In this document: positions 13,307-23,105 of the stretch, piece after piece
Layout: each line of letters opens with the position of its first letter
How positions within the stretch are numbered: position 1 is the stretch's first letter
Assembly: GCA_964626965.1 (NCBI GenBank)
Contig: CAZVHB010000003.1
Span: forward strand, 12,256 to 76,255
Origin: an uncultured Candidatus Saccharibacteria bacterium
GTDB taxonomy: Bacteria; Patescibacteriota; Minisyncoccia; Phycocordibacterales; UBA9973
DNA length: 64,000 nucleotides
Direction of reading: 5' to 3'
Translations under genes and position numbers: made by a program
The notes under the pieces: model-generated
The model's input: only the letters and a program-made list of their open reading frames with translations
Databases searched by the model: none
Told to the model about the DNA's origin: nothing

Positions 13307-15337
13307 TTACTTTAGTTTAAAATCAGGAATATCTTTCTGTGCCTGAGCTAAAGCTTCAGTATACAGTTTCTGATCTCCAATAATCTCTGCAAATTGAACC
13401 AGAAGTCGATGCGAAGACGCAAAGGTCGGATCAATGGCAATACCCTCCTTATAAGCATTTTCTGCTGATTTTAAGTCCCCTTTCCAGACATAGATCTGTG
13501 CCATACTCCAGTGCACATTTGGATTTGTTGGTGATAATTTTTTTGCTTTATTGAGTACCATTAGAACGTGATCAAACATCTCAGGATTTGCACTCATCTC
13601 ATTCAGATATAATAATGTTCCGTATAAATGTGCAATAGTAATTGATAAACGATAATCAGTTGGGTTACGAACAGAGACTTCTTCAAGATAATTAATCAAA
13701 CCAGTTAAATCCTCAACAACATACGGGAGGAGTTTTGTGTCGTTTTTGAATTGTGCTGGATTAGCTGAGTATTTTTTATACAGATCATCAGCAAGCCCTC
13801 CAACATCCCAAGCTTCACCAACAGAAGAACCAGAAAGAAGATCTTTGTACGCTTCTGCTCTTTTATTAATCGGCATAACAAATATCTCTGCATACGCTCC
13901 TGATTTAGATACAGGCATCTTTACAAAAAAGATAAGACAAGCAACACAGGCAAGACCGAGAAAACCGACAAGAAATACATCGTACTCTGAATCCGTGTAC
14001 CTCTTTTTCAGTGGAACTGTTTGACCATCATCACCATACAAGCTGTACAGTATTCCTGTAATCATAAAAAGTGCTGTAAGAGATAGGTTTGAATCAAATG
14101 TCATTAAGTTATTTACAATATAGGCGACAAGAAGTCCTACAAAAATAGAAACTTGAATCTTTGTGAGTACACCTTTTTTGTGTAAATGCAACAATACATA
14201 AAACAAACTACCCAAAAAGAGAGCATATAAAATAATGAGCGGATATCCACCAGACACACCAAGATCATAATATTGATTGTGAGCACGATCCGCCCAACCT
14301 TCATAGCTATTCTCTACTCGGAGGATTTTTGGATTGAAATTCTCTTGAAATGCAATTTGATAATTTTCTGGACCGTACCCAAGAACAGGATTTTTATCTA
14401 TTGCTTTTTGTGCAACATCCCAAAAAATAAATCGACTTCCTCGAGCTTGTTCTGCAAATTTGTTATGTAAGGTTGTATTTGGAGTAACTAATTGTACCCA
14501 TAAAAACCCAGAAACGAGTACTGCTATGGTCGCAATACCAACACTCAATCCCCTGATACTTTTCTTGGAAGAAAGAAACATATAACCAACGACGCTTGCT
14601 CCAATACCACTGATAATTGCTAGTATTGTTCCTCGAGCAGTACCAAGAATACTTCCATCAGAAAAAAGGCGGTACAGACTCGCAAAAACTGGCGAGAATA
14701 TAATAATGGCCATAGTACTGTAAATAAATAATTTTTTAGTTTTACTTATATTTTTACTACAGAGAAGAAACAAAGATACAGCCAGCGTAAACAAAAAATA
14801 ACCGGCAGCAAGTGTTGAGTTACCCGCAAACCCTCCCCCAGCATCTGTTTTTAACACAGTAAAAGGTAAATGAAAGCCATCAACACCCATCCATACACTG
14901 AGAGCCAAGAGAGAAGACCCGGCAATAAAATACTGAAACAACGAAGTAACATACGTCATTCCAGATTTCTTAACAAGCGAGGCAGTAACGAGAGCAAAAG
15001 CAAAGACATGATAAAAAGTCAAAAGCCCTGTGCCCCGCCCAAGAGAAGACCAGAAAGCGAGATTGGGATTTACTGCATAGATTGTTGCAAGTGTCATCCA
15101 GGTTAAAACTACAGAAGGTATTGCAAACATAAGAAGTGTTTTCTTTGAAAGACGATACTGTCGATCCTTAAAAGCAACATAGAGCCATAAGAAAAAGAGA
15201 ATTTCAACCACCCCATACATAAAAAATGTTTTTGATGAGATATGCGGAAATAGCCCACGACTCCAAAAAATGACCGGCATCAAAAGCACTAAAGTAAAAG
15301 AGAGGTATTCAAGCATGTTTTCTTTGAATGTATTCAT
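13307..15337 (-). CDS. O-antigen ligase/Wzy_C-family polytopic membrane protein with C-terminal TPR repeats (paralogue of 11222-13264)
   Basis: Same architecture as its neighbour ('ARGTILAIISGIGASVVGY', C-terminal TPR: 'AENAYKEGIAIDP'). Confidence 0.6.
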   Translation of the reverse strand: MNTFKENMLEYLSFTLVLLMPVIFWSRGLFPHISSKTFFMYGVVEILFFLWLYVAFKDRQYRLSKKTLLMFAIPSVVLTWMTLATIYAVNPNLAFWSSLGRGTGLLTFYHVFAFALVTASLVKKSGMTYVTSLFQYFIAGSSLLALSVWMGVDGFHLPFTVLKTDAGGGFAGNSTLAAGYFLFTLAVSLFLLCSKNISKTKKLFIYSTMAIIIFSPVFASLYRLFSDGSILGTARGTILAIISGIGASVVGYMFLSSKKSIRGLSVGIATIAVLVSGFLWVQLVTPNTTLHNKFAEQARGSRFIFWDVAQKAIDKNPVLGYGPENYQIAFQENFNPKILRVENSYEGWADRAHNQYYDLGVSGGYPLIILYALFLGSLFYVLLHLHKKGVLTKIQVSIFVGLLVAYIVNNLMTFDSNLSLTALFMITGILYSLYGDDGQTVPLKKRYTDSEYDVFLVGFLGLACVACLIFFVKMPVSKSGAYAEIFVMPINKRAEAYKDLLSGSSVGEAWDVGGLADDLYKKYSANPAQFKNDTKLLPYVVEDLTGLINYLEEVSVRNPTDYRLSITIAHLYGTLLYLNEMSANPEMFDHVLMVLNKAKKLSPTNPNVHWSMAQIYVWKGDLKSAENAYKEGIAIDPTFASSHRLLVQFAEIIGDQKLYTEALAQAQKDIPDFKLK

Positions 15338-15358
15338 ACGCCGATTATATCAAAAAAT

Positions 15359-15489
15359 CCCCACACCTACCAAACCATTATTTCAATATGTTTTAACTAC
15401 TCATAAAAGGTAACCATTGGTACATACATTTATGTCTCTACACAATGTGTATTTGAAATCAAAAACACGATGGTTTGGTAGGTGTGGGG
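15359..15489 (+). repeat. ~131-bp element bounded by perfect 20-bp terminal inverted repeats (copy 1 of 2; MITE-like or structured ncRNA)
   Basis: CCCCACACCTACCAAACCAT at 15359-15378 and its exact reverse complement at 15470-15489. The second copy at 30991-31128 has conserved internal ends and a compensatory change. Confidence 0.55.
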
Positions 15490-15495
15490 AAAAAC

Positions 15496-15527
15496 AAAAA
15501 ACCACCCAAATAGGGTGGTTTTTTGTT
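15496..15527. terminator. bidirectional rho-independent terminator
   Basis: ACCACCC-AAATA-GGGTGGT hairpin flanked by an A-run and a T-run. Confidence 0.7.
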
Positions 15528-15569
15528 AACTCTGAAAAGTTTACCTTTCCATCAGTCTAATACTAAGTA

Positions 15570-17561
15570 TTAGTTGTTGATGTATTGGAAAGCAGTTCGG
15601 TAGTTAGTTACAGGAAGTAGATCACTGTTTGTAGCAGTGTTGAGTGCAGCTTCTGTAAATGTTCGAATTGTATCCAATCGGAAACGAATTGAAGTATTAT
15701 CAGTTGCTGCTGTCATTGTTACGTTAACAGTGAAGTTCTTTGTAACACCATCATCAAGACGGAAACCGTTTGATTCAACAGTTGCGTCTGAAGTTGAGAG
15801 TGTGATTGAAGTTGTAGCAGATACACTTTCTGTATTTGGAAGTGCTGCAGTTTCTACAACAAGAGCAAATGCGTTTGAAGCAGTAGCTGCTGTTGCGAGT
15901 TGTGCAGATTGTCCAATGTACAATGTATTACCAAATGCAGTAACTGCAACTGGAATAGTGTATGTACGTGAAGTAATGTTACCGTTTTGGTCTTCTGTAC
16001 TAGCGTAAGTAGGAGTTCCCATTACAGTATTAACACCAGTTGAACGGAATGTCATTGTTTCACCCATAGCTGAACCTGTTCGGTCACCAGTTACGAGTTG
16101 ATCACCATTCATATCTTCTATATCAAAGTAGTTAGTTGTAGTAGCTGCAACCAATGCTGAAGTGATTTCAGCTTTCAAAGTTGTACCTTCTGTGAAGTTT
16201 ACATCAATGTCACTGATATCAGCGTAGATAACACCTTCTACTGTAGCATCTTTTTCTACAGAAAGATTGAGGTCATCGAAATTTTTAGTAGCACTAGAAG
16301 CTACGTTAGTTATTGTTTCATTGTATGTATTACCAGCAATCTTAAGAGTTACATTTGAAGTAACTTCATTAAGAGTATGTGATGTAGTAAATGTAACAGG
16401 AACTTGATCAAGCAACATGTTTGAACCTTGAGCTTTCAAAGTGAATCTCAAAAGTTCAACTTGGTTTGTATCAGATGTTGTAGAAACTTTAACAGTCTTT
16501 GCAGTCATGTTTGAAGTTGCAAGATTAACTTTCATTTCTACATCACTTGCTGTTGCGAGTGAAGCGAATTGGAAAGTCTTACTGATTAAACCAGTTGAGT
16601 CTGTCAAGATAGCACCTGTTCCATCACTGAAACGTGTACTTTCAAGAGTAGTTGTCCAAGTGTTTGAAGCGAGGTCTGTAGAATCAATATTTGCAGCTGC
16701 GTCAACTGATACGTAGAAAGTTTCTTTCTTATCAGCTTTTATAACAGCATTTGAAAGTGAAATTGATTTTGAGTAAACACCTGATGATTCTGAAAATGCA
16801 GAAACGTCAGCTGAACCAACTTTCGTTGAACCCATCCAAACTGAAACCTTAGTTGCGTAACGGTTAAGCTTGTCTGAGCCAGAACCTGTAGTCATTTCAA
16901 GGTTAAGTTTAACTGAGTTGATAGCGAGGTCAGAACCATTATCAGCTTCTACAGTGTATGCAAAAACTTTGTGGTCGACATCACCTTCTCCAACTTTTTC
17001 GTTTGAAATAGAAGAAAGAACTTCTACTAGTTGGATATCACCAGCACCACCAGTAACTACTGTTGTTCCAGCAGTACATGAAGCACCTGTAGTTGAACTA
17101 AAGAGTGCACCTGCTGTACATCCAGCTACTGTTGAAGTAGCAGTTGCACAAGATTGACCAGTTGTTGTACTGAATCCTGTTGTTGAAGTACATCCAGTTG
17201 GAAGAGTTCCACCTGTTGATACTGTTCCACAAACGTTACCGATTGTAGAAGCTGAGTTACGTGACATGTTACCGAAGTAACCTGTTGAAGGAACACCAGC
17301 TTTAGTTTGATACTTCATAACAGCTGCTTTTGTAGCCATTCCAAAGTATGTTGATTCGAAACCTTTTGAACCATTTGAACCTGTAGTCACATCAAGTGCT
17401 GTATCAGGACAAGCGTTCAAAAACATTTGTAGCCCTCGTACATTTTCACCAGTTGATCCAACCATCATGTTGGTAGTGAAAGTAGCTGTTGAAGCGTTTG
17501 CTGTAAGAGCAAAAGCAGCAACAAACATTGATGCGAGAGTTAATTTAAAAATTTTACTCAT
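15570..17561 (-). CDS. secreted surface protein: signal peptide, peptidoglycan-binding (PG_binding_1-like) domain, Ser/Thr/Cys-rich linker, large beta-rich C-terminal region
   Basis: N-terminal 'MSKIFKLTLASMFVAAFALTANA'; 'VRGLQMFLNACPDTALDVTTGSNGSKGFESTYFGMATKAAVMKYQ' resembles the PG-binding domain; the linker is 'TGGTLPTGCTSTTGFSTTTGQSC...'. Confidence 0.55.
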   Translation of the reverse strand: MSKIFKLTLASMFVAAFALTANASTATFTTNMMVGSTGENVRGLQMFLNACPDTALDVTTGSNGSKGFESTYFGMATKAAVMKYQTKAGVPSTGYFGNMSRNSASTIGNVCGTVSTGGTLPTGCTSTTGFSTTTGQSCATATSTVAGCTAGALFSSTTGASCTAGTTVVTGGAGDIQLVEVLSSISNEKVGEGDVDHKVFAYTVEADNGSDLAINSVKLNLEMTTGSGSDKLNRYATKVSVWMGSTKVGSADVSAFSESSGVYSKSISLSNAVIKADKKETFYVSVDAAANIDSTDLASNTWTTTLESTRFSDGTGAILTDSTGLISKTFQFASLATASDVEMKVNLATSNMTAKTVKVSTTSDTNQVELLRFTLKAQGSNMLLDQVPVTFTTSHTLNEVTSNVTLKIAGNTYNETITNVASSATKNFDDLNLSVEKDATVEGVIYADISDIDVNFTEGTTLKAEITSALVAATTTNYFDIEDMNGDQLVTGDRTGSAMGETMTFRSTGVNTVMGTPTYASTEDQNGNITSRTYTIPVAVTAFGNTLYIGQSAQLATAATASNAFALVVETAALPNTESVSATTSITLSTSDATVESNGFRLDDGVTKNFTVNVTMTAATDNTSIRFRLDTIRTFTEAALNTATNSDLLPVTNYRTAFQYINN

Positions 17562-18058
17562 ATTTTATAAAACGCACTTATAATTGCTTTCGACTTTTGT
17601 GCAATTTTGGTGTGCGTGCGTGTGATAAATCACACTCATCCAATGAAGCTTTTTTAAAAACATAATTATTCTTAAAAATGAATCTATGAATGTTTGGTAG
17701 AATTCTCTACCTTGTCGACAAGGTCCGATCTGGGTCACCCCATATCGAATCTATGTGCGATGCGAACATGTTATTTTCGACATGAAAAACATATCAGAAG
17801 AACATACGATACTCGGTATCAATATAGTATGCCTATTTTGTTTTTAATGATCGAACGTCAGATGTTGTGCACCTCACGCGTAATGTACCTATGCTAAACC
17901 TTGCGGTCGCATAAATAAACTACTTGTATATAATCTCATATAACACGTTAAAATGCAACAGAGATTACATATACTCTGACGGGACAGATTGGGAAATATT
18001 ACAGTGAGGATATAGGTTTTAGGTGGTAGGTTGTAGGGTAGATTTTAGTGCTCATCAA

Positions 18059-18103
18059 GACACAGCGAGGGTGGACCTTTGTCCAACCTCGCTGTGTCTT
18101 TTT
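18059..18103 (+). terminator. rho-independent terminator (plus strand)
   Basis: 12-bp stem GACACAGCGAGG/CCTCGCTGTGTC followed by TTTTT. Confidence 0.65.
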
Positions 18104-18136
18104 CTACCAGCTACAACCTGTAGCCTGCACCCTACG

Positions 18137-19042
18137 TTACTCCATGTCCTTTAGAAAAAAGTAGCGACTCCAGCGACGGTCCCCTTCTTTTCGGAGGTAT
18201 CCGTCTTTAATCAAATCATTGAGTTCTCGCTGAATAGTCTTCTCACTACAGTTGCCAATATGATTCAAAATGTCCTTTAGACTTGATTGCACCTGAGCTT
18301 GAGTATTATCTTTAATAAACTTAAGGATAGTCTTCTTTCTATGATTTTTATCTTGAGAATTTTTTGATTCAAGAAGTATATTTTTTGCAGAATGTCCTAT
18401 AGAAGAGATTCTATTGAGGGGCATTTTTTGTCCTATAGAAACTGGTGGTTTCTCTTTTTTATCGGTCACTATTTTTTGATTTTTATCATTGAGCTTTTGC
18501 ATTTTTTGTCCTATAGAATTTTGAATATTTTTCTTATCGGACAAATTACTTATTCCATTTCCATAATTCATGAGGGGGAGAAAATCGAGATCTTCGCCAA
18601 AGAAATTTTCATCAAAGAGTGGTGATACAACACCGTGCTCTTTCGAATAGTATTCCTTGTATCCATCAACATATTCTACAAGAGTTTTTATAAACATATC
18701 CACTTCTCGATCAAATAAATTTTTACTTTCAGGGGAGAGGATACCTTGGATCACAACACCCTGAGTGAGTGTTTTGAGTTCTTTAAGGACATACGAAATC
18801 TCTGAAGCAACATGAGCATGATGCTCGTTTTCTCGTGGATGGAGCATATAGGACATTTCAAGAAAATCTATACCAAGATACTGCAGTCTATCGGTCATAT
18901 TTTTATGAGACACGTACTTCGTGAGAAGAAACACAGCGTGATATATCCGATCAGCCTTATCGGTCATTTTTTTAAATATATCTTCAAAATGTGTGTATAT
19001 TTTAATATTACTCTGTATATTGTGTGGATTTTTTTCGTACAT
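18137..19042 (-). CDS. hypothetical protein with C-terminal winged-helix (DeoR-like HTH) and internal peptide repeats (SIGQKM x3, MTD(K/R) x3)
   Basis: C-terminal '...NHIGNCSEKTIQRELNDLIKDGYLRKEGDRRWSRY' resembles a wHTH; the gene carries the repeated DNA motifs noted in findings. Confidence 0.5.
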   Translation of the reverse strand: MYEKNPHNIQSNIKIYTHFEDIFKKMTDKADRIYHAVFLLTKYVSHKNMTDRLQYLGIDFLEMSYMLHPRENEHHAHVASEISYVLKELKTLTQGVVIQGILSPESKNLFDREVDMFIKTLVEYVDGYKEYYSKEHGVVSPLFDENFFGEDLDFLPLMNYGNGISNLSDKKNIQNSIGQKMQKLNDKNQKIVTDKKEKPPVSIGQKMPLNRISSIGHSAKNILLESKNSQDKNHRKKTILKFIKDNTQAQVQSSLKDILNHIGNCSEKTIQRELNDLIKDGYLRKEGDRRWSRYFFLKDME

Positions 19043-19478
19043 GAATGTCTTTTAGGTTAATAAAAATGTCCTATAGATCTTCTCTGGTATATCGCATGGA
19101 TATTTCTTCAAAGAGATATTCTCTGAGAACTGACCTTTAAAAAAATACGTGCCAAGCTACTCTTTTGATTCGCCCATTATACATGTCCTTTAGAATTTGT
19201 CCAATAGAAATAGAGACTCAGCTAGACACAACAATCTCACCTCTACCTCCGTAGTCTGTGAATGAGAGAAGAACAGGCACAAGTCTTTTGGTTCTTCCCA
19301 TAGGCTCGAACTGAAATGAGTTTGGAAGTTATCCACAGTTCGTGGATATGCTATAATAAGCAAACGCTGAATCAGTCTCAATTTTCCCGAACGAAAACAA
19401 TATGTCGACAATTAATTAAAAAGTAACACATTTACTACAGAAGAAACATACACTCATTCTGTAATAAAATTTTGGCGG

Positions 19479-21674
19479 ATGAATCAAAAAAAATTAAAAA
19501 AAAATGAAGATGAAGCACCAATTCCAAAAATTATCCAGCAAGGACTAGAACATAGTATGAACCCTGAAACAAGAAGAATTGTGAGTATGCTCGTTTTTTT
19601 CCTCGTCGGAATTATTTCACTCCTTGGAGTATTTAATGCAGGTGGTATTGTCGGTGAAGCACTCAAAAATGCTTTCAAATATGTCTTTGGTTTTTTGTAT
19701 TTTATTATTCCTTTCTTTTTCCTGTATTTTGGAATGAGGCTCATAAAGAGAAAAACATTACTTCCTGGTGCACGTATTTTTTGGGGTGGTGCACTTTTTG
19801 TCATCACACTACTTGGACTTGAAACACTCTCCATATTTACACGACAAGGAGGATTAATTGGAGAAGTTACTGTGTCACTCTTTTCAAAACTATTTGGAGT
19901 CATTGGGGCAATAACCACACTAGCAATCGGGCTCATTATTTCATTTATGATTCTTTTAAACACTCGCCCTGATTTCACACTCTTGTTAGAAAAATTAAAA
20001 TCATTCTTTACAAAACTACTCAAAGGAGGACTCTCTTTTGGAAAAAGTTCTATTCACCAGCTCTCACTACCAAAAGAAGATGACTATAGTGACGAAGGTC
20101 TCGAGATACATGAATCAATAGAAACACCGACACAAATGAATGATGTAAAAACAAAAAAAATTGTCGCTCATTCAGACACAGAAGAAGAAGACGTACCCGC
20201 CCCGAAAGCAAAAAAAAGAGACAGTGGAACATATGTCTTCCCTCCTACAGCACTCCTCTCTCGAGATCAAGGTAAGCCAAATACGGGTGACATCAAAGCA
20301 AATGCAAATATCATAAAACGAACACTGCAAAATTTTGGAATAGAAGTAGAGATGGATGAGATCACCGTCGGACCGACTGTCACCCGCTACGCTCTCAAAC
20401 CAGCAGAAGGAGTGAAACTCTCTCGTATTGTTGCACTTCAGAGTGACTTAGCACTCGCGCTCGCTGCCCACCCTATTCGTATTGAAGCACCAATTCCTGG
20501 TAAATCACTCGTTGGTATTGAAATACCGAACAAAGCAAAATCAATTATTGGGTTCTCAAACCTTATGGAAGATCCACTCTTCAAGAACGATCCGAAGCCA
20601 CTCTTGGTTGCGCTTGGGAAAAATATCTCAGGTAAAGCTCGTTTTGCAAACTTAGCGAAGATGCCACATGCACTCATTGCTGGAGCAACTGGTTCAGGAA
20701 AATCTGTCACGGTACATGCGATTATTACATCGCTCCTCTATCGAAATAGTTCAGATGATCTGAAGTTTATCTTTGTTGATCCGAAGCGTGTTGAACTCAC
20801 GATGTACAATGGACTTCCTCACCTCCTCACCCCTGTCATTACTGACCCAAAGAAAACCATTATGGCACTCAAATGGGCAGCAAAAGAAATGGAGAAGCGT
20901 TATGATATTCTTGAAAAAAGTAAAGTCCGAGATATTGCTTCATACCATGAAAATATCTACAACAAACGTAAAAATGACGAAATAGACAGAATGCCGTACA
21001 TTGTGATTATTATCGACGAATTAGCTGATATTATGTCTGCCTACCCACGAGAACTCGAGAGTGGTATCGTCCGCCTTGCACAAATGTCTCGAGCAGTTGG
21101 TATTCACCTGATCCTCTCAACTCAACGCCCAAGTGTAAATGTCATTACCGGACTCATCAAAGCAAACGTTCCTGCTCGTGTTGCACTCCAAGTTGCGAGT
21201 CAAATAGATTCACGAACTATTATCGATCAACCAGGTGCAGAAAAGCTTTTGGGAGCTGGAGATATGCTCTATTCTTCAGGTGAAATGTCTAGTCCTGAAC
21301 GTATCCAATGTGCCTATATTACAGAAAATGAGGTGAAAAACATTGTTTCCTTTATTAAGGATAATAATGATATACTAAGTGAAGATATCAATCTTTCTCC
21401 AGGTGCACTTGGAAATACAGATGGAGTATTTTCTGCAAATGTTGATGGAAATGATGACGATGATTTATATGAAGATGCTCGAGCGACCGTAATGGAAACA
21501 GGTAAAGCATCAACATCATTCCTCCAAAGGAAGCTTGGTGTTGGATACGCACGTGCTGCACGATTGATCGATATGATGGAAGAACGTGGAGTGGTTGGAC
21601 CAGGTAATGGTTCAAAACCACGAGAAGTGTTGCAAAAAAGTGTAGCTGAAGAAAAAGAAGAATTCGAAAACTAG
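19479..21674 (+). CDS. ftsK: DNA translocase FtsK/SpoIIIE
   Basis: N-terminal TM helices, 'GATGSGKSV' Walker A, 'IVIIIDELADIM', C-terminal gamma-like winged helix. Confidence 0.9.
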   Translation: MNQKKLKKNEDEAPIPKIIQQGLEHSMNPETRRIVSMLVFFLVGIISLLGVFNAGGIVGEALKNAFKYVFGFLYFIIPFFFLYFGMRLIKRKTLLPGARIFWGGALFVITLLGLETLSIFTRQGGLIGEVTVSLFSKLFGVIGAITTLAIGLIISFMILLNTRPDFTLLLEKLKSFFTKLLKGGLSFGKSSIHQLSLPKEDDYSDEGLEIHESIETPTQMNDVKTKKIVAHSDTEEEDVPAPKAKKRDSGTYVFPPTALLSRDQGKPNTGDIKANANIIKRTLQNFGIEVEMDEITVGPTVTRYALKPAEGVKLSRIVALQSDLALALAAHPIRIEAPIPGKSLVGIEIPNKAKSIIGFSNLMEDPLFKNDPKPLLVALGKNISGKARFANLAKMPHALIAGATGSGKSVTVHAIITSLLYRNSSDDLKFIFVDPKRVELTMYNGLPHLLTPVITDPKKTIMALKWAAKEMEKRYDILEKSKVRDIASYHENIYNKRKNDEIDRMPYIVIIIDELADIMSAYPRELESGIVRLAQMSRAVGIHLILSTQRPSVNVITGLIKANVPARVALQVASQIDSRTIIDQPGAEKLLGAGDMLYSSGEMSSPERIQCAYITENEVKNIVSFIKDNNDILSEDINLSPGALGNTDGVFSANVDGNDDDDLYEDARATVMETGKASTSFLQRKLGVGYARAARLIDMMEERGVVGPGNGSKPREVLQKSVAEEKEEFEN

Positions 21675-21678
21675 GTAT

Positions 21679-22023
21679 ATGAAAATAAAAATAATTACTA
21701 TTTGCATCATAAGTATATTTACAGTCTATGGACTCGCGAAGTCTAGTGATATATTTTTTGGAGCACCTGTTTCATTTGCTATAAAAAATGAAAGTACCGC
21801 ACGGATGGCAATCACTGGTAATGCAAAACACAGTAAAGAGATTTTCATCAACGGAGATGAAACAATGGTAAACACACAGGGTGATTTTAAATACGAATTT
21901 AGTCCCCTCCCTGGTGTAAACATCGTCACGCTCGTTACGAAAGATACCTTTGGTAATACACAAAAGAAAACCCACACATTTGTTTATAATAATACGCAGG
22001 AAAATAAAACTGCACAGAGATAA
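21679..22023 (+). CDS. small secreted hypothetical protein
   Basis: Signal peptide [20 protein letters not shown]; beta-rich; 114 aa. Confidence 0.4.
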
Positions 22024-22028
22024 TAACT

Positions 22029-23105
22029 ATGGCACTAAAAAAAGCAAAAAAAGAAGTAGTCTTAAAAACAACCAGCTCCCCTATTGAGGACACAATCAAA
22101 TCAATCCAAACAAAATTTGGTGAAGGTGCGATTATGAAACTCGGTGATGCTCCAAAAGTAGATATTGGTGTGATTCCAACAGGGTCACTTGGTCTTGATA
22201 TGGCGCTCGGTATCGGTGGAGTTCCACGAGGACGTATTATCGAAATATTTGGACCAGAGTCATCTGGAAAAACAACACTTGCTCTTCATATCGTCGCAGA
22301 AGCCCAAAAACAAGGTGGTGTATGTGCTTATATTGACGCAGAACACGCAATGGACCCAGAATATGCGAAAGCACTTGGTGTGAATATCAACGAACTTCTT
22401 ATCTCACAACCAGATACAGGAGAACAAGGACTTGAAATTACTGAATCACTTGTTCGGTCAGGTAAAATTGCTGTTATCGTTATTGACTCAGTTGCAGCGC
22501 TCACTCCAAAAGACGAGATCGAAGGAGATATGGGTGCTCATCATGTCGGGAAACAAGCGCGCCTCATGTCACAAGCACTTCGAAAACTCACTGCTATTGT
22601 TGCTCATTCAAACACTGTGGTGATCTTTATCAACCAAATCCGTATGCAAATCGGTGTGATGTTCGGAAATCCAGAAACAACTCCTGGAGGAAAAGCACTT
22701 AAATTCTACACTTCTGTTCGTCTTGATATCCGTCGTATTGCACAAATAAAAAAAGGTGAAGAAGTGGTGGGTGGTCGTACTCGTGTCAAAGTAGTCAAAA
22801 ACAAAGTCGCAGCACCATTCAAACAAACTGAATTCGATATTATTTATGGTGAAGGAATATCATTGGAAGGAGAAATCCTTGCCCTTGGTGAGAAACTCAA
22901 CCTGATCACCAAATCTGGTTCATCATATACTTATGTACGACCAGATGATAGCAAGAAAGGAGCAGACGAGAAAGAAGTAAAACTCGGACGTGGTTATGAT
23001 GCAAGTCGTACATTCCTCAAGGAGGACAAAAAGCTGACCGATGAACTCTTAAAAGAAATTAGAAAACGTTTTGATCAGATACAGGTTGCAAGTTCAGGAG
23101 AATAA
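22029..23105 (+). CDS. recA: recombinase RecA
   Basis: '[13 protein letters not shown]', 'AYIDAEHA', the L2 loop '[22 protein letters not shown]'. Confidence 0.95.

Follow-up and report, generated by a model that had tools for sequence, protein, structure and literature searches.

Why should the gene for a winged helix-turn-helix (wHTH) protein carry the same short DNA word again and again, both in its upstream region and within its coding sequence? The gene in question encodes a protein of 301 aa and lies in a stretch of 64,000 nucleotides, referred to here as the window, from a Patescibacteria (CPR) bacterium, where it is divergent from ftsK (19479-21674, + strand). A preliminary description of the locus had put forward two explanations: a self-binding regulator whose operator is also embedded in its own CDS, or growth of the gene by cassette duplication, the upstream copies being decayed. 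The coordinates of the features considered below are collected in Table 1.

Table 1. Features of the wHTH gene and its surroundings, in positions of the window.
Feature	Position	Strand	Basis
Long hairpin, 20-nt arms	18057..18100	.	inverted-repeat search, sequence
wHTH-protein CDS, 301 aa	18137..19042	-	ORF list
Motif copy TCTAAAGGACAT, last codons (LKDM)	18144..18155	-	exact match
Motif copy TCTAAAGGACAT, wHTH-coding, different frame (SLKDI)	18270..18281	-	exact match
Motif copy TCTATAGGACAT, linker-coding, encodes SIGH	18392..18403	-	exact match
Motif copy TCTATAGGACAA, linker-coding, encodes SIGQ	18428..18439	-	exact match
TATCGGTCA copy 1, linker (VTDK), one mismatch from inverted ATCGGACA	18460..18468	+	
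Motif copy TCTATAGGACAA, linker-coding, encodes SIGQ	18506..18517	-	exact match
Inverted copy TATCGGACAAATT, LSDK on gene strand	18535..18547	+	inverted-repeat search
Inverted copy TTAAGGACAT, codons YVLKEL	18783..18792	+	relaxed search, orthologues
Inverted copy TATAGGACATTT, codons EMSYM	18847..18858	+	relaxed and inverted-repeat search, orthologues
TATCGGTCA copy 2, MTDR codons	18889..18897	+	match, orthologues
TATCGGTCA copy 3, MTDK codons beside invariant K29-A30-D31	18958..18966	+	
Degenerate motif copy TAAAAGACAT, 3 nt 5' of ATG	19045..19054	-	relaxed search, orthologues
Motif copy TCTATAGGACAT, ~127-nt 5'UTR	19066..19077	-	exact match
-10 hexamer TATAAT of wHTH-gene promoter	19176..19181	-	promoter scan
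Motif copy TCTAAAGGACAT, promoter spacer	19183..19194	-	exact match, orthologue alignment
Motif copy TCTATTGGACAA	19197..19208	-	exact match
ftsK	19479..21674	+	ORF list, synteny comparison
Small-protein gene	21679..22023	+	ORF list, synteny comparison
recA	22029..23105	+	ORF list, synteny comparison

The gene was found in the same company throughout the family. In all 73 testable loci, ftsK is its divergent partner, and ftsK, the small protein, recA and a PG-binding protein are its conserved neighbours (73/73); Pfam FtsK domains are present in the orthologous locus L082. The hairpin lies 37 bp 3' of the stop codon and is terminator-like, with an apex, TGGAC-CTTT-GTCCA, that carries two inverted GGAC half-sites. 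A scan of positions 17000-20000 against Rfam at E<=1 gave no match.

The repeat is confined to this gene within the window. WTGTCCWWTAGA shows eight exact matches, all on the + strand and all within 1.07 kb (18144-19208), against 0.10 expected per 64 kb and a maximum of 1 in 100 dinucleotide shuffles, which bears out the eight copies counted in the preliminary description. No exact match was found in the remaining 63 kb. Allowing one mismatch in the 11-mer added only two matches in the 64 kb, both distant and unrelated, and relaxed patterns gave 10-11 matches in 1.2 kb compared with 0.16-0.41 per kb outside. Seven of the positions given earlier are exact, while 18505 should be 18506, and the last two copies (19183 and 19197) are indeed tandem, 14 bp apart. 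The earlier count was incomplete, as at least four further copies had been overlooked, namely the degenerate one at 19045-19054 and three inverted ones at 18535, 18783 and 18847; about a dozen copies are spread over the gene's own promoter and CDS. The five intragenic copies are read as the peptides SIGQ (twice), SIGH, SLKDI and LKDM, in agreement with the peptide reading proposed before. The two SIGQ copies are part of an exact 20-nt duplication, GCATTTTTTGTCCTATAGAA, whose copies stand 78 bp (26 codons) apart in linker-coding DNA. With regard to close orthologues, the site at 18392..18403 was found in five out of five and TATTGGACAAAT, from the copy at 19197..19208, is kept in four out of five; homologous TATAAGACAT/CGACAT copies correspond to the 5'UTR site, and 17 nt at the last-codon copy (TTTTTTCTAAAGGACAT) are identical across five orthologues. 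Intergenic copies are likewise present in orthologous loci. Two outcomes had been named beforehand as refuting, a motif at the background rate and intergenic copies missing from orthologues; both were checked and neither was seen, the first within the 64 kb.

Two of the intergenic copies overlap the predicted promoter of the gene. The best sigma-70-like site in 17500-19600 is TGGACA-16-TATAAT on the gene strand, with 11/12 consensus matches. Its -35 hexamer (19198-19203) is the core of the copy at 19197..19208 and the spacer copy ends 1 nt from the -10 hexamer, these being the two window copies upstream of the -10. TGTATAAT, at the -10 region, is invariant in five orthologues. In the family, TATAATGGACA, which fuses the -10 hexamer to the motif core, was found upstream of the gene in 21 of 79 loci compared with 4 occurrences elsewhere; in most cases a -35 of the TTGC type precedes it by about 17 bp. 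In 41 of 80 loci the start codon has a site that ends within -1 to +7 nt of it. Family sites fall into two clusters, from -200 to +200 (promoter, 5'UTR and start) and from +400 to +800 (linker- and wHTH-coding DNA), with background between and outside them, and are partly set at 12-bp tandem spacing. The modal number of sites per cluster is about five, a figure that shifts with the strictness of the site definition. Promoter-proximal sites lie mostly 3' of the -10, at 38 per kb compared with 3.3 per kb upstream of it. On the other side of the intergenic region, the window sites nearest ftsK are at least 120 bp from the putative ftsK -10.

The family comparison comprised 80 homologous loci from different Patescibacteria species with 24-52% protein identity; motif density was determined in the gene plus 300 bp upstream, with the flanks as control. 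WWGGACA was found at 4.0 per kb on the sense strand and 1.36 per kb on the antisense strand, compared with 0.22 and 0.18 in the flanks. In an unbiased ranking of 7-mers, AAGGACA came first (279 observed, 5.8 expected, 79/80 loci), and AAAGACA was also strongly over-represented (295 observed, 14.8 expected). The family consensus of the word is TATAAAGGACA, with the core AARGACA, and its most conserved part is GGACA rather than the TATAAA half. The pattern persists at 24% protein identity and in hundreds of species. The family itself comprises 2,702 clusters at 50% identity (E<=1e-10) and extends over at least 557 species-level genomes, where its members are annotated only as 'hypothetical' or generic 'DeoR/HxlR'. 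A metagenome-wide scan for the tandem AAAGGACA-N4-AAAGGACA returned 80 loci, only one of which held a family gene; the other 79 belong to unrelated organisms with a GC content of 0.22-0.69 and are therefore regarded as chance or unrelated repeats.

Judged from these loci, the motif acts at the level of DNA and not as a peptide repeat, because it occurs in three sense frames (K-D-x, 137; K-G-Q/H, 76; x-R-T, 19), in both orientations, and as non-coding copies fused to a -10 box. Antisense copies are read as V-L or S-F, in two frames, and the 300 bp upstream contain 86 sense and 31 antisense non-coding matches. For the Asp of the wHTH site at 18270..18281, 50 of 68 loci use the codon GAC, whose background share is 42% (p=1e-7), and among five orthologues 7 of 11 codons inside sites are identical, compared with 28 of 107 elsewhere (p=0.015). 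Cassette duplication, with the upstream copies as decayed remnants, was rejected as the main explanation on the grounds of the three sense and two antisense frames, the conserved non-coding -10 fusion and the fixed synonymous positions. It could account for the exact duplication GCATTTTTTGTCCTATAGAA and for a linker that varies in length and sequence among orthologues, and the duplication does indicate that this process helps to spread sites. As the origin of the whole array, however, it has almost no chance of being correct: five different reading registers are used, copies overlap functional promoter elements, synonymous positions are constrained, the DNA word is kept where the surrounding linker is unalignable, and all of this persists at the protein divergence and species range given above.

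A second motif had also been described. Its three TATCGGTCA copies are present in the window, against 0.41 expected, and one in 100 shuffles reaches three; the enrichment is real and its significance weak, at the borderline. What did not stand is its status as a separate motif, since GGTCA-type words are unenriched in the family (1.2 vs 1.38 per kb), and GGTCA as a second functional core was rejected at the family level. We prefer to read TATCGGTCA as a relative of inverted ATCGGACA that differs by one mismatch, is mostly codon-driven and is located in conserved MTDK/MTDR codons. Across the family ATCGGACA is over-represented (50 in, 9 out), and at the position of TATCGGTCA copy 3 the orthologue L001 shows ATGTCCGATAAG, a genuine inverted GGACAT site. 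The inverted copy at 18847..18858 is invariant in five orthologues, and the protein encoded there is invariant as well.

In the AF2 model, the protein consists of a four-helix bundle (aa 6-136, pLDDT ~98), a Lys-rich, disordered linker (aa ~140-222, pLDDT <50) and a C-terminal wHTH (aa 224-296, pLDDT >90). The model thus agrees with the winged helix previously noted at the end of the gene product, and so does HTH_DeoR (PF08220), which was detected at E<=0.05 in 55 of 70 relatives (best 3.8e-6). The window protein itself gave no PF08220 match in Pfam, and its best HTH scores are sub-threshold: 17.7 bits for HTH_36 (cut-off 25) and 16.7 bits for LexA_DNA_bind (cut-off 23.7), the latter at the C-terminus. 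Across 70 sequences with a mean identity of 24%, the recognition helix and wing are invariant (S266, K268, T269, I270, Q271, R272, G287, R290, W291, S292 and Y294). This constancy parallels that of the GGACA core.

The N-terminal 130 aa are modelled as an up-down four-helix bundle like that of the IVS/Avd family (PF05635), on whose solved members it can be superposed (TM 0.70-0.79, rmsd 2.0-2.4 A). Foldseek aligned it with 2gsc (TMt 0.72-0.79, rmsd 2.1-2.6 A over ~108 residues), with 2rld (TM 0.75-0.78) and with phage Avd-like proteins of BFVD (TM 0.70-0.78), at weak E-values of 0.02-0.1; four-helix bundles are common folds, which limits the weight of this likeness. Profile similarity is weak: the family profile gave 2gsc as its top match in the PDB (E=0.053), six of the 70 members matched PF05635, the best of them at E=0.0054, and phmmer with the window protein against PDB sequences gave no match. 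Z-alpha and DsrD-type winged helices were also returned by Foldseek. The PDB entry 2gsc contains five chains and Avd is a pentameric barrel (PMC6182149), beside which the modal five sites per cluster are only suggestive. Known IVS/Avd members are stand-alone proteins of ~115-130 aa, and Avd partners a reverse transcriptase, whereas RT or DGR is absent here. As far as our searches show, the fusion of an IVS/Avd-like bundle to a linker and a wHTH is new: no description of a CPR regulator of this type, or of a four-helix-bundle plus winged-helix architecture, was found in the literature searched.

Of the two explanations put forward at the outset, the self-binding regulator with an operator in its own CDS is strongly supported by the comparison of loci. 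The motif cluster accompanies the gene in 79 of 80 loci of distant orthologues, with background levels in the flanks; its copies extend over the -35, spacer and -10 of the best promoter found for the gene, and the winged-helix residues predicted to read DNA are invariant. Since hundreds of related genomes show the pattern at this gene, it most likely marks a self-regulating switch next to ftsK (cell division) and recA (repair). We consider it probable that the protein is a multivalent autorepressor, which would occlude its own promoter and bind to a further operator array within the gene itself. As the operator for the C-terminal winged helix we propose the 11-12 bp word T-C/A-T-A-W-A-G-G-A-C-A-W; each copy is an asymmetric single site and would therefore probably take up one wHTH. 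Array A, of about five sites, runs from the -35 through the spacer, the edge of the -10 and the 5'UTR as far as the start codon. The similarly sized array B lies 400-800 bp downstream in the DNA for the linker, the wHTH and the C-terminal tail. We infer oligomerization of the bundle from its structural relatives, which are pentamers; the resulting hub would carry several wHTH domains on long, flexible tethers and could thus fit sites of irregular spacing in either orientation. Filling of array A would block RNA polymerase, and array B may contribute avidity, a loop or a road-block and thereby steepen the feedback. As array B lies in the CDS, the operator would impose peptide islands (SIGQ/SKGH, LKDI, MSF/MSDK) on a tolerant linker. 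A relaxed motif search found no other convincing promoter-located sites in the 64 kb, and with itself as the sole visible target the autorepressor would have no evident output.

The gene could instead be merely the target, with TATAAAGGACA read by a different transcription factor or by the RNA polymerase holoenzyme; in the latter case they might be taken for -10 elements and lead to internal initiation or to pausing that depends on sigma. A -10 hexamer makes up the 5' half of the motif (TATAAA/TATAAT), many loci use one copy as their actual -10, and the link between protein and motif comes from comparison. We regard this reading as improbable, as GGACA and not the TATAAA half is the most conserved part, inverted copies are enriched, the wHTH contact residues are invariant, and the cluster is limited to one gene in every genome sampled, with neighbours at background, which is what self-recognition predicts.

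A further possibility is that the protein itself or some other factor reads the motif on the mRNA and so controls its stability or autoregulates translation, DNA binding being secondary. The 3:1 sense preference, which holds for the CDS and the upstream region alike, and the location of the promoter-proximal sites, mostly 3' of the -10 in the transcribed 5'UTR, would also fit such recognition, as would the site ends at the start codon in 41/80 loci, the resemblance of the AAAGGA part to a Shine-Dalgarno sequence and the presence of Z-alpha and DsrD-type folds among the Foldseek matches. Nevertheless, inverted copies are still 7-fold enriched, the full 11-nt motif is fused to an untranscribed -10 in 21/79 loci, two window copies are placed 5' of the -10, enrichment is just as high for AAAGACA, a variant with no SD-like GG, and Rfam gave no match, so that we give this reading little credence. 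Internal starts for a wHTH-only isoform, an idea that originated from the two occurrences of GGACAAAAAATG in the window's linker, were rejected: in-frame ATGs within 12 nt after linker sites amount to 9.2%, compared with 9.0% at random, an absence of enrichment that also speaks against the mRNA reading.

The array may also be architectural, that is, a protein-bound, centromere-like landmark by ftsK/recA for chromosome handling at division, with autoregulation as a by-product. At least ten single sites are clustered, partly in 12-bp tandem, as in type II/III partition centromeres; this is the only such cluster in the 64 kb, the divergent pairing with ftsK is universal (73/73 testable loci), and no further regulon member is visible. 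Partition centromere systems such as ParR-parC, TubR-tubC (12-bp repeats, wHTH) and ParB-parS inside spo0J are indeed similar in several respects. KorB (PMC11790492) is counted with these binders. The locus shares with them short-repeat arrays around the binder's own promoter and, as proposed here, autoregulation by promoter occlusion; it resembles TubR in a wHTH on 12-bp repeats, which is predicted here, and spo0J in a site inside the binder's own gene. In contrast, a gene for a cognate NTPase motor is missing, the protein is of an unrelated architecture, and the sites are irregularly spaced and in both orientations. No ParM, TubZ or ParA-like partner was found among the adjacent genes, no ParB or ParR domains were found, and no ori/ter signature was seen in the window, whereas the sites coincide precisely with the -35, the -10 and the start codon, which points to transcriptional control. 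A landmark of this kind is therefore distinctly unlikely.

RepA_N genes have gene-internal origins. The protein might likewise be an initiator of replication (RepA_N/RepC-like) whose iterons lie both within its gene and next to it, marking the origin of a secondary or integrated replicon. In p42d, oriV is located within repC (PMC3155836), and RepA_N proteins bind iterons (PMC7145576); like them, the locus has putative target repeats in the variable middle of the binder's own CDS, as dual-use DNA, and a perfect DnaA box is located at 19329 in the intergenic region shared with ftsK. Unlike them, it is chromosomal and single with core synteny, fixed around ftsK/recA in all testable loci, its sites also cover a promoter, and it shows no origin signature; domain searches detected no Rep, RepA_N or helicase-loader domain. 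DnaA boxes with at most one mismatch number 22 against 20.9 expected, the cumulative GC skew is monotonic, without inflection, and gene orientation is mixed, without a switch. An oriC or terminus at the divergent intergenic region was rejected on the same figures, and we consider an initiator exceedingly improbable.

E. coli DeoR, a multi-operator looping repressor, comes close to the autorepressor that we favour. So does NanR, a cooperative binder of the repeat operator (GGTATA)3 (PMC8012715). Like DeoR and NanR, the protein proposed here would be an oligomeric winged-helix repressor with several operators, some of them hundreds of bp from the promoter, which gains avidity from multiple sites; its operators are of the repeat type rather than simple palindromes, as in NanR. 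In contrast to both, the HTH is C-terminal (aa 224-296) and the DeoRC or FadR-type effector domain is absent, so that the order of the DeoR family (N-terminal HTH, C-terminal DeoRC sugar-phosphate sensor) is not found here; a Pfam search of the window protein and the family gave no DeoRC. The predicted oligomerization module is instead an Avd/IVS-like four-helix bundle with a disordered tether of ~80 aa, at least ten sites are present, and the distal array lies inside the regulator's own CDS, where it shapes the peptide sequence. Two other regulators were considered. LexA, taken up by analogy, failed the domain tests as an SOS repressor identity: TIGR00498 scored 16.5 bits against a cut-off of 110.95, the S24 domain is absent, and no motif copies were found upstream of recA in the window. 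WhiA is an HTH regulator of ftsK/ftsZ with a GACAC motif; this identity was rejected, as WhiA matches are absent from Pfam and NCBIfam results and the N-terminal domain is a four-helix bundle and not LAGLIDADG-like.

A more far-reaching version of the autorepressor, which we consider unlikely though worth setting out, is a multivalent organizer with an Avd-like core, possibly a pentamer, and about five winged-helix heads on disordered tethers of ~80 residues. These heads would clamp the two arrays, in the promoter and in the linker-coding DNA, and loop out the bundle-coding segment between them. The sequence of the linker would then be dictated by its own operator, in an overlapping code kept across thousands of Patescibacteria lineages. 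The whole might be an ultrasensitive switch for dosage or the cell cycle, with the divergent ftsK-recA operon also under its control.

Much of bacterial diversity belongs to the Patescibacteria (CPR), and gene regulation in them is almost undescribed. TATAAAGGACA and the protein encoded beside it would constitute a ready, testable candidate protein-operator pair, and the locus also supplies a predicted CPR promoter architecture. It would further offer a clear natural case of an operator array that overlaps a CDS and there dictates the peptide islands of a disordered linker. The enigmatic IVS/Avd four-helix-bundle fold would, if the hub model is true, be the oligomerization core of a transcription factor.

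The motif associated with the wHTH gene is a real and highly non-random feature whose conservation extends far outside the window. All eight exact matches of WTGTCCWWTAGA are antisense to the gene, with none across the other ~63 kb of the window; shuffled sequences had 0.10 on average and never more than 1. With one mismatch allowed, the 11-mer gave just two extra matches, both distant and unrelated. The preliminary description had correctly counted eight copies, although the one placed at 18505 lies at 18506, and its list omitted one degenerate and three inverted copies.

Features of the wHTH locus and their coordinates in the window
Feature	Position	Strand	Remarks
wHTH gene	18137-19042	-	301 aa; divergent from ftsK
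ftsK	19479-21674		followed by a small ORF, then recA
WTGTCCWWTAGA copies	18144, 18270, 18392, 18428, 18506, 19066, 19183, 19197	+	exact match
Degenerate motif copy TAAAAGACAT	19045-19054		3 nt before ATG; relaxed search/repeat finder
Inverted motif copy TATCGGACAAATT	18535	+	relaxed search/repeat finder
Inverted motif copy TTAAGGACAT	18783	+	relaxed search/repeat finder
Inverted motif copy TATAGGACATTT	18847	+	relaxed search/repeat finder
TATCGGTCA copies	18460, 18889, 18958		
Sigma-70-like promoter TGGACA-16-TATAAT	19203..19176	gene strand	11/12 matches; best within 17500-19600
Exact 20-nt duplication GCATTTTTTGTCCTATAGAA	18421-18440, 18499-18518		78 bp (26 codons) apart; linker-coding DNA
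Hairpin	18057-18100		20-nt arms, 95% complementary; T-run on + strand; 37 bp past wHTH stop codon
Imperfect inverted repeat flanking the hairpin	18013-18036 / 18111-18134		

A scan sampling each species by a single genome found at least 557 relatives, and 80 loci were retained. Within the gene and 300 bp upstream, WWGGACA occurred at 4.0 versus 0.22 per kb on the sense strand (18-fold enriched) and was 7-fold enriched on the antisense strand; the flanks were at compositional background. AAGGACA headed an unbiased ranking of all 7-mers (279 versus 5.8 expected, in 79/80 loci), closely followed by AAAGACA (295 versus 14.8), and the position weight matrix reads T-[A/C]-T-A-A-A-G-G-A-C-A. That another factor, or RNA polymerase, binds the sites is improbable, as this leaves the exclusivity of the cluster to the wHTH gene unaccounted for.

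With regard to the second motif previously proposed, TATCGGTCA, the three occurrences were found (0.41 expected; three reached by 1/100 shuffles), two of them on conserved MTDK/MTDR codons. However, its status as a separate motif is doubtful: it is one base away from ATCGGACA, a variant form of the inverted main motif that is enriched in the family (50 versus 9; window copy at 18535), whereas GGTCA words show no family-wide enrichment. At the position homologous to copy 18958, a true GGACAT site, ATGTCCGATAAG, is present in the related locus L001, and in L082 GGTCAT replaces the GGACAT of the others at another conserved site. The TATCGGTCA copies are probably weak or decayed relatives of the main motif rather than an independent one.

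The coding comparisons indicate that the main motif is a DNA word rather than a repeated peptide. Two different frames are used in the window, where TCTAAAGGACAT translates to L-K-D-M/I (18144, 18270) and TCTATAGGACA to S-I-G-Q/H (18392, 18428, 18506). Across the 80 loci, the sense word in coding sequence is read as K-D-x (137), K-G-Q/H (76) or x-R-T (19), and the inverted word as x-V-L or x-S-F. Among the closest 16 homologues, the SKGH, MSF and LLKDI islands, conserved in an otherwise unalignable linker, are one DNA word whose translation varies with frame and orientation. Two database proteins even carry spurious N-terminal extensions (...FKGH..SKGH) that are translated upstream operators. 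Several orthologue gene calls (P0007, P0009 and P0015; protein alignment A1, columns 1-38) likewise start too far upstream; here the motif has misled the annotation, the surplus residues ..IFKGHLIYSKGH.. being translated operator copies. Synonymous positions within sites are also constrained: the invariant Asp of the wHTH (IKDI) is encoded by GAC in 50/68 loci versus a 42% background (p=1e-7), five close orthologues share identical codons at 7/11 positions within sites versus 28/107 elsewhere (p=0.015), and TTTTTTCTAAAGGACAT, the 17 nt immediately preceding the final codons, is identical in 5/5 orthologues (52-78% protein identity). A gene built from duplicated cassettes, the other option raised earlier, would account for the one exact 20-nt duplication, but is contradicted by the multiple frames, both orientations and the non-coding copies, and is very improbable. 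The gene strand of each duplicate, TATAGGACAAAAAATG, places an SD-like AGGA 7 nt before an in-frame ATG, an arrangement that is not enriched family-wide.

The sites form two clusters, at -200..+200 and +400..+800 from the start codon, with background between and beyond. With a relaxed core, the modal count is 5 in each (means 4.4 and 4.7), and neighbouring sense sites are frequently 8, 12 or 24 bp apart, with no one fixed spacing. Such an array is compatible with an architectural or centromere-like role, which is nevertheless unlikely, a motor partner being absent. In the best sigma-70-like promoter, the core of copy 19197 serves as the -35 and the spacer is occupied by copy 19183, which stops 1 nt short of the -10; five orthologues have TGTATAAT unchanged. 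Orthologue comparison places three tandem copies, degenerate to varying extents, in the 5'UTR, the final one adjoining the ATG, and in 41/80 loci the end of a site falls between -1 and +7 nt of the start codon. Fusion of the -10 hexamer to the core (TATAATGGACA) is seen in 21/79 loci versus 4 occurrences elsewhere (~1.1 Mb, both strands counted); in these loci a TTGC-type -35 usually precedes it by ~17 bp, and another site usually follows 12 bp downstream. Recognition on RNA would suit the sense bias and the 5'UTR location, but inverted copies are enriched and the -10-fused sites are untranscribed, making this quite improbable.

Divergent ftsK lies upstream in 73/80 loci, or 73/73 testable ones, since the other seven have too little upstream DNA; recA is next in 59 and a PG-binding-domain protein is downstream in 54. 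The wHTH-ftsK distance has a median of 243 bp, and sites crowd into the 100 bp beside the wHTH gene, with zero in the 50 bp beside ftsK. A Rep/iteron origin is hardly credible, being contradicted by this core-gene synteny and by the absence of origin signals. The conserved order (window 13307-23105; L001-L080), recA <- small (TM?) protein <- ftsK <> wHTH -> PG-binding-domain Thr/Ser-rich surface protein, followed in some loci by a Wzy_C-like O-antigen ligase, spans Paceibacteria-type genomes, with the wHTH protein down to ~24% identity and recA still at ~80%. The gene is present in three small genomes that are complete or nearly so: L123 (Ga0163148_10000001, 742,240 bp), L047 (CP011215.1, 752,630 bp; locus at 335-343 kb, ~45% along) and L070 (OY970290.1, 681,747 bp; locus at 94-103 kb). 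In the window, within 19329-19356, a perfect DnaA box, TTATCCACA, inside a 7-bp inverted repeat, TATCCAC-N5-GTGGATA, sits immediately upstream of an extended -10-like TGcTATAAT (+ strand, 19348-19356), probably the ftsK promoter, from which the nearest site is at least 120 bp away. ATTATAGCA and CTGTGGAnAA are partially conserved among close orthologues; DnaA boxes are otherwise not enriched in the window. The hairpin beyond the wHTH gene has an apex, TGGAC-CTTT-GTCCA, of two inverted GGAC half-sites, and this region (18013-18134) may be a bidirectional terminator, an additional binding site or a structured element.

Pfam/NCBIfam searches with the window protein gave winged-helix matches below threshold only, but 55/70 family members match HTH_DeoR. 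An AlphaFold2 model built with a 70-sequence alignment predicts, with very high confidence, a four-helix bundle at aa 6-136 and, also confidently, a wHTH at aa 224-296, with disorder between them (aa ~140-222). The bundle resembles 2gsc, 2rld and phage Avd-like proteins (TM 0.70-0.79), the first two of which are members of the 23S rRNA IVS protein or 'S23' family. The family profile has 2gsc as its top PDB match (E=0.053), and PF05635 is weakly matched in 6/70 members. PDB 2gsc has five chains, and Avd forms a pentameric barrel (PMC6182149). Among sequences with a mean identity of 24%, the recognition helix and wing (EKTIQRELN ... G-D/E-RRWS-K/R-Y) do not vary, which parallels the invariant GGACA core. 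The family comprises 2,702 clusters at 50% identity (E<=1e-10), named only 'hypothetical', 'DeoR family' or 'HxlR family'.

The most economical reading, which we consider reasonably probable, would be an autoregulatory operator system. The self-binding regulator with operators in its own coding sequence, as first suggested, is favoured by AAGGACA in 79/80 loci and the promoter overlap. The wHTH would bind asymmetric single sites, the promoter array would block RNA polymerase, and the intragenic array could contribute avidity, a road-block or a loop. A putative oligomerisation-type bundle bearing a small DNA-binding head on a long disordered tether would explain the irregular spacing and either orientation of the sites, and why ~5 sites per array may be useful. 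Placed in linker-coding DNA, the second array would cost protein function little, and its placement there would explain the peptide 'repeats'. No earlier description of such a system was found in the literature searched. The gene would be a variety of a known kind of regulator, the winged-helix factor that controls itself through several operators, here with an unusual domain architecture and an operator array inside its own coding sequence. Beyond itself, the circuit could act on ftsK-recA, on single sites at a distance or through a function of the bundle.
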